Source: a bacterium (GTDB lineage Bacteria; SAR324; NAC60-12). Taken from it: a stretch of 64,000 bases of DNA. This document shows positions 37,812 to 56,554 of the stretch, one piece after another (within the stretch, counting starts at the first letter, position 1; each line of letters starts with the position of its first letter). Made by a program: the position numbers and the translations under genes. The notes under the pieces are model-generated. The model was not told the origin of the DNA. It made no database searches and saw nothing but the letters and a program-made list of their open reading frames with translations. The stretch spans positions 448,001 to 512,000 of the forward strand of contig CBDDTI010000746.1 of the NCBI GenBank assembly GCA_965233585.1, in the 5' to 3' direction.

Positions 37812-40151
37812 TCAAGGACCAAATGCCCAAACATCGTTTTTGCAAATTCCATCCCATTCGTCCTCTCCTCCCAGCACCCAGAGTTTGCCATTGAACACGA
37901 CACTGCTGTGAGAACCCCTTTCTGACCAGTCTGCATTGCCAGTGACTTTTGTCCAATTCGCTCCATCAGAAGAACTCCAAACATCGTTTTTTCCAACTAA
38001 ATTTCTGTCAAATCCTCCCAGCACCCAGAGTTTGCCATTGAACACGACACTGCTGTGATCATCCCTTGCTGACCAGCCTGCATTGCTAGTGACTTTTGTC
38101 CAATTCGCTCCATCAGAAGAACTCCAAACATCGTTTTTGTAACTTCCGCCCTCTCCTCCCAGCACCCAGAGTTTGCTATTGAACACGACACTGGTGTGAA
38201 CCCACCTTTCTGACCAGCCTGCATCGCTAGTGACTTTTGTCCAATTCGCTCCATCAGAAGAACTCCAAACATCGTTTTTGTAACTTCCATCCCCTCCTCC
38301 CAGCACCCAGAGTTTGCCATTGAACACGACACTGCTGTGACCAGACCTTGCTGACCAGCCTGCATTGCTAGTGACTTTTGTCCAATTCGCTCCATCAGAA
38401 GAACTCCAAACATCGTTTTTGCGACTTCCGTCATATCCTCCCAGCACCCAGAGTTTGCCATTGAACACGACACTGGTGTGATCATTCCTTGCTGACCAGC
38501 CTGCATTGCTAGTGACTTTTGTCCAATTCGCTCCATCAGAAGAACTCCAAACATCGTTTTTGCGACTTCCGTCATATCCTCCCAGCACCCAGAGTTTGCC
38601 ATTGAACACGACACTGCTGTGATCATTCCTTGCTGACCAGCCTGCATTGCCAGTGACTTTTGTCCAATTCGCTCCATCAGAAGAACTCCAAACATCGTTT
38701 TTGTTACTTCCGTCATCTCCTCCCAGCACCCAGAGTTTGCCATTGAACACGACACTGCTGTGATTCCACCTTGCTGACCAGTCTGCATTGCCAGTGACTT
38801 TTGTCCAATTCGCTCCATCAGAAGAACTCCAAACATCGTTTTTGCGACCTCCGCCATATCCTCCCAGCACCCAGAGTTTGCCATTGAACACGACACTGCT
38901 GTGATCATCCCTTGCTGACCAGCCTGCATTGCTAGTGACTTTTGTCCAATTCGCTCCATCAGAAGAACTCCAAACATCGTTTTTGTTACTTCCATCCCAT
39001 CCTCCCAGCACCCAGAGTTTGCCATTGAACACGACACTGCTGTGATCATTCCTTGCTGACCAGCCTGCATTGCTAGTGACTTTTGTCCAATTCGCTCCAT
39101 CAGAAGAACTCCAAACATCGTTTTTGTAACTTCCATCCCATCCTCCCAGCACCCAGAGTTTGCCATTGAACACGACACTGGTGTGATCATTCCTTGCTGA
39201 CCAGCCTGCATTGTTAGTGACTTTTGTCCAATTCGCTCCATCAGAAGAACTCCAAACATCGTTTTTGTCATCTCCGTCATCTCCTCCCAGCACCCAGAGT
39301 TTGCCATTGAACACGACACTGGTGTGCTCATTCCTTGCTGACCAGCCTGCATTGCTAGTGACTTTTGTCCAATTCGCTCCATCAGAAGAACTCCAAACAT
39401 CGTTTTTGTTACTTCCGTCATATCCTCCCAGCACCCAGAGTTTGCCATTGAACACGACACTGCTGTGATCATTCCTTGCTGACCAGCTTTCTTCGATTGG
39501 CTTCCAAGAGTATTTGGAGATGTCAATGCTTGGAGGTTTTAGTTTGGCAGCAATGGCTTGGTCATAGCAAGCCCAGCCTGATGCAGGCGTGTTGCCTGAT
39601 GCTTTGACACGGACGCACAACTTGCCTGACGCAATGGCATCGTCTCCAAAACTAAAAGGGCTGGTGCAGTCTGTGATTTGTCCAGAGGTGGCACTTGTGC
39701 CATGAGTGGTGCATTCGTAACTCTTGCCTGAATCAGTAGCAAACGTTAAGGTTCTGCCTGAAATAGACAAGCTGGAAGGTTTGGCTAGTTTTTGAGGTGT
39801 TGGGGTCGTAGCAGCAATCGCTTGGTCATAGCAACTCCAATCAGAAGCAGGCGTGTTGCCTGATGCTTTGACACGGACGCACAACTTGCCTGACGCAATG
39901 GCGTTGTCTCCAAAACTAAAAGGGCTGGTGCAGTCTGTGATTTGTTCAGAAGTGGCACTTGTGCCATGAGTGGTGCATTCGTAACTCTTGTCTGAATCAG
40001 TGGCAAAGGTGAGCGTTCTGCCTGAAATAGACAAGCTGGAAGGTTTGGCTAGTTTTTGAGGTGTTTCTTTTTTGTTTTCTTTGTTGTTGCCAGAAGAACT
40101 CCCACCACTACTAGACGAACTTCCATCATCTTCTGCACAAGCAGAAATCAC
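37812..40151 (-). CDS. Surface lipoprotein: two Cys-rich stalk domains + 12 Kelch-like repeats; 5' end out of frame with its probable ATG (40486)
   Basis: Lipobox VISAC with in-frame upstream hydrophobic stretch; 47-aa repeat WSAR..H.SVVFNGKLWVLGG....KNDVWSSSDGANWTKVT. Confidence 0.85.
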   Translation of the reverse strand: MISACAEDDGSSSSSGGSSSGNNKENKKETPQKLAKPSSLSISGRTLTFATDSDKSYECTTHGTSATSEQITDCTSPFSFGDNAIASGKLCVRVKASGNTPASDWSCYDQAIAATTPTPQKLAKPSSLSISGRTLTFATDSGKSYECTTHGTSATSGQITDCTSPFSFGDDAIASGKLCVRVKASGNTPASGWACYDQAIAAKLKPPSIDISKYSWKPIEESWSARNDHSSVVFNGKLWVLGGYDGSNKNDVWSSSDGANWTKVTSNAGWSARNEHTSVVFNGKLWVLGGDDGDDKNDVWSSSDGANWTKVTNNAGWSARNDHTSVVFNGKLWVLGGWDGSYKNDVWSSSDGANWTKVTSNAGWSARNDHSSVVFNGKLWVLGGWDGSNKNDVWSSSDGANWTKVTSNAGWSARDDHSSVVFNGKLWVLGGYGGGRKNDVWSSSDGANWTKVTGNADWSARWNHSSVVFNGKLWVLGGDDGSNKNDVWSSSDGANWTKVTGNAGWSARNDHSSVVFNGKLWVLGGYDGSRKNDVWSSSDGANWTKVTSNAGWSARNDHTSVVFNGKLWVLGGYDGSRKNDVWSSSDGANWTKVTSNAGWSARSGHSSVVFNGKLWVLGGGDGSYKNDVWSSSDGANWTKVTSDAGWSERWVHTSVVFNSKLWVLGGEGGSYKNDVWSSSDGANWTKVTSNAGWSARDDHSSVVFNGKLWVLGGFDRNLVGKNDVWSSSDGANWTKVTGNADWSERGSHSSVVFNGKLWVLGGEDEWDGICKNDVWAFGP
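37815..39486 (-). repeat. 12 near-identical 141-bp coding tandem repeats
   Basis: Read directly in DNA and protein. Confidence 0.95.
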
Positions 40152-40282
40152 AAAAATCGTGAGCGGAATGAGAAAAAGTTTGAAGAAGTGGGATTTGAGT
40201 AGGTGAGAGAATTTTTTGACGAAAACGCAGAGAATTTGGCATTTTTGTCTTGACTTTTGAAAAAGCTGATTTAGCCTATATA

Positions 40283-40450
40283 GATTGCGGATTGCGGATT
40301 GCGGATTGCGGATTGCGGATTGCGGATTGCGGATTGCGGATTGCGGATTGCGGATTGCGGATTGCGGATTGCGGATTGCGGATTGCGGATTGCGGATTGC
40401 GGATTGCGGATTGCGGATTGCGGATTGCGGATTGCGGATTGCGGATTGCG
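40283..40450. repeat. Perfect heptanucleotide tract (GATTGCG)24
   Basis: 168 bp = 24 perfect units. Confidence 0.97.
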
Positions 40451-40536
40451 GATAAATTTTGCATATCGTGATTTTTTTGAGTTCATAAAAATATGATTTA
40501 AATCATCATCTTAAAAAGCAAGGAAAAAAGAGGCTT

Positions 40537-40565
40537 ATTGTAAATGAGTGAAAAACGAAATGCAA
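40537..40565 (-). promoter_or_regulatory. sigma70 promoter TTGCAT-N17-TACAAT directed into the heptamer tract and Kelch gene
   Basis: Near-consensus hexamers with exact 17-bp spacer on the minus strand, ~50 bp upstream of ATG 40486. Confidence 0.65.
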
Positions 40566-40614
40566 GCACTTTTTTACAAAATTCATAAAAAATGGAGTGA
40601 TTGGGAAGAAAAAA

Positions 40615-41085
40615 AGAGATTGCGGGGCAAGGTGAGCCATGACTAAGTTCAAGTTGAGCGATGACGAAAAAACACGCTTGCAAAGTTTCTCAGTCATTCC
40701 GTGCTTTTCTTAGTCATTCCGCACTTGATGCGGAATCTCAAAAACAAAAGAAGATTGCGGGTCAAGCCCGCAATGACAAAAAGATAAGACTGCAACACTC
40801 ACGTCATTCTGTGCTTGATGCGGAATCTATCAGCAAACCAAGCACAGATTCCTACATGACTAGATTCCTGCCCCTGTTTTCACAGGGGTGACGTTCTTTC
40901 GCTCCGAATGACAATAGTTGCCATTCTGTGCTTGACACGGAATCTCAAAACGAGGAGCCGTTTAGGAAAAAAGTGAGATTGCGGGTCAAGCCCGCAATGA
41001 CAGGTTAGTTGCCATTCCGCACTTGATGCGGAATCTCAAAAAAAGTGAACGAAGAAAAAAAGAGATTGAGGGTCAAGGTGAGCAA
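40615..41085. repeat. REP-like palindrome cluster
   Basis: Same palindrome families as 36820..37750. Confidence 0.85.
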
Positions 41086-41105: not shown

Positions 41106-41726
41106 TCAAGATTCTACTGCCTCCAGTTGGAGCTGCAACGAAGCAGGCGTGATGACCTGTAGTTCTCCTGCCTGTTCTTGAAAAAGATAAATGTCTTGCT
41201 CTTCTGCCTCACTAATGAGTTCGTCATAAAAGACTTCTCCCGCCAAACCGCAATGGATCTCATAATCTTGATACCTTGGAAACAATTTAGGAAAGGTCTC
41301 TTTCTGCCGAAGCACTTGTTGGAAATCTTTGACATGAGGTTTGCGTTTGACTTCTATCAAAAGCAAATGTTTTGTTTTGCTGAACAACACAAGATCGTAT
41401 TGAGCCGTGATGCCATTTTTCCCTTTGAGGTTTTGTTCCACTTCGTCGTAGCGAATGCCTCCAATTTCAATGAAACCATTTTTTTCTATAACCTGTTCAG
41501 CAGAACGAAACAGACGATTTTCTAAAATTTCTGACGTATTGCTGATGAAGTTTTCCATCTGCTTCACACCTCGCATCATGCTGGCAACTGCTGGTCCGAG
41601 TTCCTGAAATTGCAAAGTGGTTTCTTCTTGGCGTTTTTTCAACTCCTGCATACCTTTGGCATTTTCTTCTTGCTGCTTTGCAACTCTATCTAAAGTTGCC
41701 CAAATTTCATCAAATTGTTCACTCAT
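41106..41726 (-). CDS. Coiled-coil + PD-(D/E)XK nuclease-fold hypothetical protein
   Basis: N-terminal heptad-rich QQEE..MQELKKRQEE; E..YDLVL....LLIEVK motif. Confidence 0.7.
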   Translation of the reverse strand: MSEQFDEIWATLDRVAKQQEENAKGMQELKKRQEETTLQFQELGPAVASMMRGVKQMENFISNTSEILENRLFRSAEQVIEKNGFIEIGGIRYDEVEQNLKGKNGITAQYDLVLFSKTKHLLLIEVKRKPHVKDFQQVLRQKETFPKLFPRYQDYEIHCGLAGEVFYDELISEAEEQDIYLFQEQAGELQVITPASLQLQLEAVES

Positions 41727-54676: not shown

Positions 54677-56554
54677 ATGCAAAAGTTCATCAATCGTTGT
54701 TTTGTTCATTTGGCATCTGTTGTCAAACCTTCTGTTGTCCAGACAGGTGTTTGCCTGCTGTGCATCACGACTCTCTTTGCCTGCAGTAGTGACGATGGTG
54801 GTGTGTCCACGGTGACCGTCACAGAAAAAGTAGTGCCACCAAGCACTCCGAGTGAAGTGAAAACGAGCGAGGTCAAAGCCAGCAGTGTCAAGGTCAGCTG
54901 GTTGCCTTCAGCAGATTCAGATGGTCAAGTGGAAGGTTATGAAGTCTCTTACAAGACAAGTAGCGGGTCATGGACTGGCACACAAACCACCACGCAAACC
55001 AGTCTGATTGTGTCAGGATTACAGCCTGAAACCAGCTACACTTTTCGTGTTCGTGCCAAAGATGATGAGGGAGACTGGAGTCCTTACCAACAAAGCTCTG
55101 CTGTCAAGACTGCACCCAACGCACCAACTTCTCTTGCTATTTCAGGCAGAACGCTCACCTTTGCCACCACTTCAGGCAAGAGTTACGAATGCACCACGCA
55201 TGGCACAAGTGCCACTGCCGCACAAATCACAAACTGCACCAGCCCTTTTCGCTTTGGAGATGATGCCATTGCTAAAGACAACCTTTGCGTTCGTGTCAAA
55301 GCATCTGGCACTCCTGCTTCTGATTGGGCTTGTTACGCACAAGCGATTTTTAAGAAAGTCTTGACTAAACAATGGTCCAAACTGCTTGGCAGTAGCAATT
55401 CAGATTATGGAAGAGGAGTGAGTGTGGATTCAGCAGGCAATGTGTATGTGACAGGAAACTCTCATGGAAATTTTGATGGACATACCAATTCAGGAGGTTA
55501 TGACATGTTTTTAGTGAAGTATGACAGTTCAGGTAATAAGAAGTGGTCTAAACTGCTTGGCAGTAGCGATTCTGATTATGGATATGGAGTGAGTGTGGAT
55601 TCAGCAGGCAATGTTTATGTGACAGGATACTCTTGGGGAAATTTTGATGGACACAGCAGTTCAGGAGGTTATGACATGTTTTTAGTCAAGTATGACAGTT
55701 CAGGTAATAAGAAGTGGTCTAAACTGCTTGGCGGTAGCAATTCAGATTATGGAGAAGGAGTGAGTGTGGATTCTTCAGGCAATGTTTACGTGACAGGAGA
55801 ATCTTTGGGAAATTTTGATGGACACAGCAATTCGGGAAGTTTTGACATGTTTTTAGTGAAGTATGACAGTTCAGGTAATAAGAAGTGGTCTAAATTGCTT
55901 GGTACTAGCAGTTGGGATTTAGGAGAAGGAGTGGTTGTGGATTCTGCAGGCAATGTGTATGTGACAGGATACTCTGGGGGAAATTTTGATGGACACAGCA
56001 ATTCAGGAGGTTGGGACATGTTTTTAGTGAAATATGACCCTTCAGGTAATAAGAAGTGGTCTAAATTGCTTGGCAGTAGCAGAAATGATGAAGGAAGAGG
56101 AGTGAGTGTGGATTCTGCAGGAAATGTTTATGTCACAGGAAGATCTGAAGGAAACTTTGATGGACACAGCAATTCAGGAAGTGATATGTTTTTAGTGAAG
56201 TATGACAGTTCAGGAGTGAAGAAGTGGTCTAAACTGTTTGGCAGTAGCAGTTGGGATTCAGGAAGAGGAGTGAGTGTGGATTCAGCAGGCAATGTGTATG
56301 TGACAGGAATATCTGAAGGAAATTTTGATGGACACAGCTATTCAGGAAGTGATGATATGTTTTTAGTGAAGTATGACAGTTCAGGTAATAAGAAGTGGTC
56401 TAAACTGCTTGGCACTACAGATTATGATAGAGGATATGGAGTGAGTGTGGATTCAGCAGGCAATGTTTACGTCACAGGAAGCTCTTGGGGAAATTTTGAT
56501 GGACATGTCAATTCAGGAGATAGGGACATGTTTTTAATCAAGTTTGGGAGGTAG
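54677..56554 (+). CDS. Surface lipoprotein: FN3 domain + Cys-rich stalk domain + 7 SBBP beta-propeller repeats
   Basis: Lipobox LFAC; FN3 (VSW..S.D.DG.VEGY, GLQPETSYTFRVRAKD); 57-aa repeat KWSKLLG...D.G.GVSVDSAGNVYVTG.S.GNFDGH..SG..DMFLVKYDSSG. Confidence 0.9.
   Translation: MQKFINRCFVHLASVVKPSVVQTGVCLLCITTLFACSSDDGGVSTVTVTEKVVPPSTPSEVKTSEVKASSVKVSWLPSADSDGQVEGYEVSYKTSSGSWTGTQTTTQTSLIVSGLQPETSYTFRVRAKDDEGDWSPYQQSSAVKTAPNAPTSLAISGRTLTFATTSGKSYECTTHGTSATAAQITNCTSPFRFGDDAIAKDNLCVRVKASGTPASDWACYAQAIFKKVLTKQWSKLLGSSNSDYGRGVSVDSAGNVYVTGNSHGNFDGHTNSGGYDMFLVKYDSSGNKKWSKLLGSSDSDYGYGVSVDSAGNVYVTGYSWGNFDGHSSSGGYDMFLVKYDSSGNKKWSKLLGGSNSDYGEGVSVDSSGNVYVTGESLGNFDGHSNSGSFDMFLVKYDSSGNKKWSKLLGTSSWDLGEGVVVDSAGNVYVTGYSGGNFDGHSNSGGWDMFLVKYDPSGNKKWSKLLGSSRNDEGRGVSVDSAGNVYVTGRSEGNFDGHSNSGSDMFLVKYDSSGVKKWSKLFGSSSWDSGRGVSVDSAGNVYVTGISEGNFDGHSYSGSDDMFLVKYDSSGNKKWSKLLGTTDYDRGYGVSVDSAGNVYVTGSSWGNFDGHVNSGDRDMFLIKFGR
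55370..56551 (+). repeat. 7 near-identical ~171-bp coding tandem repeats
   Basis: Read directly. Confidence 0.93.

Follow-up and report, generated by a model that had tools for sequence, protein, structure and literature searches.

Nearly all work on repeat-driven phase variation has concerned pathogens of humans and livestock. In Neisseria, the opa genes carry a (CTCTT)n tract in the region coding for the leader peptide (PMC3960869, PMC5084427), and licA (lic1A) of Haemophilus influenzae is described as containing (CAAT)n, its start codons alpha/beta and gamma being distributed over two reading frames (PMC2212159). For the hgp genes of the same species, which possess (CCAA)n in the 5′ coding region, ON fractions of 31.5% and 22.2% have been reported, most alleles being OFF (PMC9341677), and a coding heptamer, (AACAACC)n, was found in a HI1369-like TonB receptor (PMC2651432). 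The Vlp lipoproteins of Mycoplasma hyorhinis are reported to share a signal region and to contain variable repeats (PMC12815946). Arrays of the TAACTGA type in Beggiatoaceae are described as many and short, lying mostly in intergenic regions upstream of the start codons of diverse genes (PMC4679880). The locus analyzed here is located within 64,000 nucleotides (the window; contig CBDDTI010000746.1, positions 448,001 to 512,000, of assembly GCA_965233585.1) of an uncultured marine bacterium listed under SAR324, where 24 copies of a heptamer lie between the start codon and the signal peptide of a gene for a Kelch lipoprotein. Judging from the sequence, slipped-strand translational phase variation is the most probable mechanism of this tract (probability about 0.75), and the gene would thus be switched in living cells.

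Coordinates given without a contig are positions in the window, the gene being encoded on the minus strand; C-numbers denote contig and position in the same assembly. The tract, (CGCAATC)24 on the minus strand and (GATTGCG)24 on the plus strand, is perfect: the maximal period-7 run comprises 171 bases (40283-40453) with 24 whole units (40283-40450) and 0 mismatches. It contains no stop codon in any of the three frames and encodes IRNPQSA repeats. The Kelch frame is open from 40502 to 37812 including the tract (896 codons stop to stop), with an intact payload of 822 codons. Behind the tract, the leader reads YRLNQLFQKSRQK...KLFLIPLTIFVISA-C and ends at the lipobox cysteine (40139-40137). It consists of a conserved basic n-region starting with YRLNQLFQKSRQK (40179-40282, minus strand), which is in frame without ATG, GTG, TTG or CTG and contains a run of six A residues (40212-40217), and of a hydrophobic core with lipobox, LFLIPLTIFVISA-C (40137-40178, minus strand), for which lipidation is predicted on the basis of the established lipobox pattern. 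The first ATG, GTG or TTG of the Kelch frame after the tract is GTG 40151, located four codons ahead of the lipobox cysteine. A sequence-only reading of this DNA had already recognized the tract between an ATG (40484-40486) and the lipoprotein signal, the Kelch frame lacking a start ahead of the hydrophobic core, and the closure of the frame of ATG 40486 at 40271, all of which held up. Overlooked was a second ATG (40462-40464; MQNLS...), 14 bases ahead of the tract. With 24 units, both ATGs are out of frame and run into stop codons just past the tract (40271-40278, minus strand), yielding 62 amino acids (aa) from 40464 (TAG 40278-40276) and 71 aa from 40486 (TAA 40273-40271). At 23 units ATG 40464 opens a frame of 881 aa, at 25 units ATG 40486 opens one of 893 aa.

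The two ATGs differ in their conservation within a nine-way alignment of the leader cassette, which comprises the focal copy and the copies B to I described below. The column of ATG 40464 is common to eight of the nine copies, among them the in-frame copy G and the tract-free homologue I (MQKLDATF), which read from the aligned ATG; copy E possesses a different ATG with a strong Shine-Dalgarno (SD) sequence. ATG 40486 is restricted to the focal copy, G and H, and is in frame at n = 1 mod 3. Hence, the conserved rule for the ON state is n = 2 mod 3 (23 units, 881 aa). The sequence-only reading had proposed a translational switch, OFF at 24 units, that starts at ATG 40486 and is ON at n = 1 mod 3; the switch is still the best reading and is strengthened by the paralogues, but its start and frame rule have to be replaced. 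ATG 40486 is nevertheless a possible second start, giving the ON state at 22 or 25 units, since the contexts of both ATGs are within the range of the genome (45th percentile for 40486 and 34th for 40464 among 818 likely starts), SD pairing is equally weak at 60% of these starts, and the signal peptide of copy H is in frame with the upstream ATG alone. An SD sequence of the AAGGT type is missing at ATG 40464 of the focal copy and present in copies B, C and G. The TTTTATG context of ATG 40486, ascribed also to other genes of this bacterium, is overrepresented at likely starts, TTTT preceding the ATG at 4.9% of the 818 starts versus 1.5% of 803 internal ATGs. The alternative of a start at ATG 40242 combined with the loss of one A was rejected, because this ATG is absent in copies B, C, D, F, G and I, the A6 run is in frame in B and E, and six A's are present in the short-read contigs. 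The suggested promoter, TTGCAT-N17-TACAAT (40537-40565, minus strand), is present and conserved in five cassette copies, but it matches only 8 of 12 sigma-70 positions and did not appear in a consensus scan, which returned 2 sites compared to 4.0 in shuffled sequences. Five of the seven exact matches to TTGC[AT]T-N17-TA[CA]AAT in the six bacterial contigs belong to cassette copies, which share ancestry, and a looser motif revealed no excess at a spacer of 17 (67 versus 58-96 at other spacers). Support for this putative promoter comes from its conservation.

The tract belongs to a family. Six contigs of the assembly (12.0 Mb, 747 contigs) were assigned to the bacterium; they comprise 2.96 Mb with a coding cover of 0.79-0.89 and all contain hairpins resembling repetitive extragenic palindromes (REP), while the remaining contigs are low-coding, microsatellite-rich and eukaryotic-looking. 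RecA of the bacterium matched other proteins at 69-74% and HutU gave scattered matches, which leaves the SAR324 assignment provisional. A scan of all 747 contigs for at least two exact CGCAATC units detected five tracts, with 24 (focal), 18 (B, C746:71144), 17 (E, C295:101580), 9 (C, C745:167236) and 8 units (D, C747:156519), all flanked by AAA(T)TTATC and TAT..AGGCT. Copy F (C747:846356) harbors an octamer tract, (CCGCAAAT)10, instead. These six copies share their flanks, and their tracts are located 6-29 bases after an ATG and ahead of an export signal. Two further copies retain about two imperfect units: G (C746:304826) is in frame and reads MENLSAIRNPYRLNQ...SAC (464 aa, intact), and H (C745:217337) has a frameshift in its payload. 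The homologue I (C745:12350) has no tract and leads from MQKLDATF...SAC into a 604-codon frame. The payloads of B (536 codons), D (366 codons) and F (702 codons) are intact, whereas that of C contains a TAG at codon 565. Between tract-bearing copies the cassettes are 52-78% alike, but the payloads are mutually unrelated except for B and F. They comprise the Kelch protein, DUF7151 proteins with or without a collagen-like stretch, three proteins without a Pfam family and, in G and H, repeats of the SBBP type. Expansion is confined to the cassette: at least two exact units occur at 5 of the 518 CGCAATC sites in the bacterial contigs, all five in the cassette, and 12 other ATCCGCAATC sites, most of them in REP-like hairpins, are single and unexpanded. 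A cluster of such hairpins, of the genome-wide ATTGCGGGCTTGACCCGCAAT type, is located next to the focal gene (40600-41050, no strand); each contains one unexpanded CCGCAATC and serves as a control for the tract.

Several observations suggest that the sequence behind the tract is coding. Between tract and hydrophobic core, the focal copy, B, C and F lack any ATG, GTG or TTG in frame, and a change by one unit opens frames of 881, 581, 592 and 728 aa, respectively. Leader codons were compared among these four copies and G; the leaders of D and E change frame and were left out. Over the 46 codons after the tract, the lipoprotein frame is free of stops in all five copies, compared to one to five stops each in the +1 frame. 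The ratio of nonsynonymous (pN) to synonymous (pS) differences amounts to 0.48 in the lipoprotein frame versus 0.65 and 1.17 in the other frames, and pN is smaller than pS in all ten pairs, at a synonymous divergence (dS) of 0.35-1.02. Conservation is highest in the codons that immediately follow the tract, with 1, 3 and 6 variable columns at the three codon positions in codons 2-14. Due to the lack of stops and the constraint in the lipoprotein frame, it is likely that translation of this stretch begins at a start located ahead of the tract. Long n-regions may be tolerated, judging from a lipoprotein encoded at C746:197300-197620 with a predicted signal of 85 residues, in which a stretch including an in-frame translated REP-like hairpin (IVIPHLMRNL) occurs twice. 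The focal locus has properties by which contingency loci are recognized, namely a long pure tract whose unit length is not a multiple of three and an intact downstream gene that can be restored by one unit. A tract behind the start with no in-frame start following it is found in the focal copy, B, C and F, the start being assigned by its conservation, and is doubtful in D and E.

The six tracts together comprise 612 bases without a mismatch. Since the cassettes themselves are only 52-78% alike and the leaders have diverged to the dS given above, the tracts are likely turning over, as a tract that had grown once and then remained static would probably contain substitutions; their unit numbers differ between the paralogues. 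Reads were available from four runs (X1 to X4) of one study on two samples, possibly including the source sample, none of the runs listed being RNA, and were analyzed as short-word contigs. Contigs with the focal flanks end at the tract, and loose ends run into the repeat in all four runs. As the contigs of every run break inside the tract, long tracts do exist in the reads. The length of the A6 run at 40212-40217, for which a check had been advised, was found to be six in the short-read contigs.

Other observations weigh against a functional switch. Read from the conserved ATG, five of the six tract-bearing copies are OFF, including all four that strictly depend on the tract (chance about 0.2 if one third were ON), although most hgp alleles are OFF as well (PMC9341677). 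The only long tract in frame is that of E, which has its own downstream ATG and signal (MALMIGISWMAVGC), and D could start at an in-frame TTG; therefore, two of the six copies may not depend on the tract at all. An ON allele that combines a long tract with this signal peptide is not represented among the copies. In the ON state, the focal signal would comprise 107 residues, compared to 58 in the two-unit copy G; in 39 of 56 open reading frames (ORFs) with a lipobox, signal lengths range from 10 to 39, mostly 20-39 residues, according to a rough scan that missed the focal gene. SD pairing at the two focal ATGs is weak (-1.3 and -2.5 kcal/mol). The selection signal in the leaders is modest and derives from pairs that share ancestry, and codons 14-30 alone reveal no excess of third-position changes (10/8/11). 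Damage is seen in the payloads of C and H. A second allele of any tract was not seen among the listed contigs, none of which spans both flanks of a long tract. The two-unit allele of G was unchanged in X3 and X4, the two runs spanning it. Among the contigs listed in a comparison with copy G at 80% likeness, neither a shortened allele at any long-tract locus nor a unit count emerged; a further 21 pieces and 10 loose ends lay outside the listing. Finally, MutS, MutL and RecA are intact, so that a mutator background is lacking, and loss of mismatch repair as the cause of the expansion was rejected on account of the intact MutS and MutL.

The four OFF copies and the lesions in C and H would also agree with a neutral expansion, in which the leader, when duplicated, carried a seed prone to slippage that expanded in each copy, and the genes were fixed OFF, decaying in a host-associated genome rich in insertion sequences (IS). 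An IS-like end is indeed present in about 30 near-identical copies, long repeats with units of 5-11 nucleotides, mostly heptamers, are described as occurring in many bacteria with no switching role demonstrated in that account (PMC4679880, citing Mrazek 2007), and slippage-driven gene loss has been described for a nascent symbiont (PMC4948707). However, decay is difficult to reconcile with the intact payloads of the focal copy, B, D and F, with leaders in which pN is lower than pS, and with pure tracts whose expansion is restricted to this one position; moreover, the recombination and mismatch-repair genes are intact, unlike in the Sodalis case. We consider this explanation unlikely, though it is the strongest competitor of the switch. 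It is somewhat less probable still that the tract belongs to a 5′ leader, with the protein beginning only behind the tract, at an atypical start codon (ATT, or GTG 40151), and tract length tuning expression or nothing, comparable to the promoter heptamers of hmw1A or the TAACTGA arrays of Beggiatoaceae. Such an arrangement is plausible for E with its own ATG and for D with its TTG, and upstream heptamer tracts have been reported to modulate the expression of hmw1A and hmw2A in H. influenzae (PMC2651432). Yet the focal copy and B contain no in-frame ATG, GTG, TTG or CTG before the hydrophobic core, a start at GTG 40151 would remove the signal, conservation peaks right behind the tract, and G and I read from the ATG aligned with 40464. 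That the gene is simply intact and the unit count or the A6 run wrong is very improbable: the count is an assembly consensus that could be off, and two genes outside the window have possibly erroneous frameshifts (the payload at C745:217337 and C747:1048344), but contigs break in the tract in all four runs, X3 and X4 show six A's (in a stretch common to the focal copy and E), an X1 contig of the focal flank has a net zero indel at the A run relative to the intact copy G, ATG 40242 is unconserved, none of ten long conserved genes in the surroundings is interrupted, and a wrong count would alter the state and not the layout.

If, as is likely, the tract acts as a slipped-strand switch, the signal peptide and the Kelch domains would move into or out of frame whenever 7-base units are gained or lost, with ON states at 23 or 26 units. 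This would entail that the tract slips in living cells, that translation begins at 40464, and that the ON product is exported by its 107-residue signal, lipidated and displayed on the surface; cells might profit from it when living in a host or when exposed to phage. With 40486 also in use, two ON frames and one OFF frame would result. It is likely that the entire cassette was duplicated to positions ahead of unrelated exported proteins, each of which may switch independently. A genome-wide habit of repeat switching is supported by a second lipoprotein family (MLEQIKSIQ...FYDKII), in which G runs are located between start and signal, i.e. at the same position as the tract. Its start pattern matched 16 sites (C747:406675-993898, C746:321993-328176, C745:43705, C729:79654), one of which is unrelated; 12 have runs of G5-G9 (four in frame) and three lack a run, all three being in frame. 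A more far-reaching scenario is conceivable, and we put it forward as tentative: a portable cassette of promoter, start, heptamer or octamer tract and long lipoprotein signal would make unrelated exported proteins phase-variable and, together with the poly-G family, give rise to a combinatorial display of loop-diversified beta-propeller lipoproteins in an uncultured marine bacterium found with eukaryotic DNA, the focal locus having three states through two starts and the length of (IRNPQSA)n in the ON state also tuning export.

The mature Kelch protein is composed of a Ser/Gly linker, two 88-aa modules containing cysteines (39547-40065, minus strand) and twelve 47-aa Kelch repeats (37812-39487, minus strand; period of 141 bases, 93% alike in DNA). 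The 88-aa module recurs in other large FN3, SBBP, Kelch and RCC1 proteins of the genome and did not match any Pfam family above the cut-off; PipB2_N was not significant (E 0.047, 14 bits versus a cut-off of 27). Of the 47 codon columns in the ten full Kelch repeats, 12 are variable, mostly at positions 5, 6, 22, 23, 25 and 26, and this variation is mostly non-synonymous (pN 0.069 versus pS 0.020). As the changes are not confined to A, there is no clear sign of a diversity-generating retroelement. According to the usual blade layout, the variable positions presumably fall into the loops that precede the first strand and follow the double glycine, on the binding face. A single-sequence structure model of the Kelch part was too weak (pLDDT 51.8) to test this placement and was not used. 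PDB sequence matches of the payload were Kelch propellers only. With its lipobox and Kelch repeats, the product may be exposed at the surface, any location beyond the lipid anchor being putative. Many further Kelch, SBBP and FN3 mosaics exist in the genome, and an SBBP-like array with a 171-base repeat (55373-56543, 6.9 copies) represents a second propeller type of the repertoire.

The gene end at 37812 faces REP-like hairpins and a convergent amidohydrolase gene, so the Kelch gene likely stands alone. On its other side, a 206-aa ORF (41106-41726) with a coiled-coil start shows a weak, below-cut-off match to HSDR_N (nuclease fold; E 0.0009), and a similar ORF also follows copy C. At copy E (C295:101430-101850), one of the IS-like ends mentioned above lies about 45 bases before the tract, and the cassette has lost its promoter part. 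Its downstream flank shares 90% with that of the focal copy, and through deletion of a single base the leader has become fused to another lipoprotein. In this case the cassette may have moved recently. The promoter part of the cassette without tract and signal was detected at C747:1048344-1048446, before a frameshifted ORF that is presumably dioxygenase-like, judging by its motif. In five of the six bacterial contigs (C723 was left out), the only other tract with at least eight copies of a 7-8-base unit is (GTCGGAA)15 (C295:240617-240721, minus strand). It is located inside an ORF that, by its motifs, is presumably methyltransferase-like and follows a presumably acylneuraminate cytidylyltransferase-like gene; the ORF is out of frame, shifts frame again some 35 codons further on, and is either a broken gene or another switch. 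At C746:350495-350794, a perfect twelve-base array, (TTCCTTTTTCCA)25, preserves the frame and is likely a coding repeat of variable length. The contig end C745:582000-620666 is rich in microsatellites of eukaryotic type, which lowers its coding cover, and possibly represents a chimeric join.

In the other genomes and metagenomes searched, the cassette was not encountered. None of 44 genomes of the same family, many of which are incomplete and often lack assembled repeats, contained a four-unit tract. A 17-mer of the cassette (one mismatch allowed) was found in five of 40 relatives, none with a tract, and the cassette in none of the 40. The leader peptide gave a single weak match in the 44 genomes, an ordinary signal peptide. 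A 12-mer seed was present in eight of 18 genomes of one genus, always at ordinary coding or intergenic sites, one of them with three units. JGI metagenomes yielded four exact 21-mer matches, none with a following tract or such an ORF. Among protein clusters, five of ten proteins were present, each as the sole member of its cluster, and a second assembly was not found.

In this uncultured bacterium, co-assembled with eukaryotic DNA, two independent repeat types are associated with eukaryote-like propeller lipoproteins, which suggests that it varies its surface at random as a defence against innate recognition by a host or against phage. A search of the literature on phase variation in SAR324 returned no report. 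Here, a probable switch is seen spreading as a cassette onto unrelated genes. This also matters for annotation, as the starts assigned by gene callers fall within the signal peptide or behind it, so that the lipoprotein nature of these genes is hidden.

Among the described systems, opa is similar insofar as several chromosomal copies share one unit within the region coding for the signal peptide, its number setting the frame of each copy independently. The opa copies, however, are all homologous barrels and their pentamer codes for the hydrophobic part, whereas here the unit of 7 or 8 bases encodes a basic n-region that directly follows the ATG, and the payloads, except B and F, are unrelated. 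With a Kelch payload, and DUF7151/collagen-like proteins or proteins without a Pfam family in the other copies, the locus does not belong to the Opa beta-barrel (CTCTT)n family; furthermore, opa switching has been measured, while here it is predicted from the layout. Like in licA, the focal tract lies just past the start, with starts in two of three frames (40486 and 40464) and, if both are used, two ON and one OFF state; licA, though, encodes a cytoplasmic kinase and contains a tetramer, and the use of both starts is a possibility at the focal locus. The hgp genes and the HI1369-like receptor gene likewise have a 5′ coding tract on paralogous surface proteins, but these are homologous receptors of a human pathogen without a shared cassette on unrelated payloads. 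Frameshifts through heptamers in coding sequence are already known from H. influenzae (PMC2651432), so that unit length by itself is no novelty. The Vlp lipoproteins have in common with this family a conserved gene start and lipoprotein signal before divergent mature parts, each of the Vlp proteins being phase-variable. Their switching is transcriptional, via a promoter poly(A), in contrast to a tract within the reading frame. Unlike the TAACTGA arrays, the arrays of this bacterium number only five, all downstream of an ATG in one cassette, and cannot be assigned to that type. What differs from all of these systems is the presence of one cassette on unrelated payloads, an n-region encoded by the tract in an already long signal, and the organism itself.

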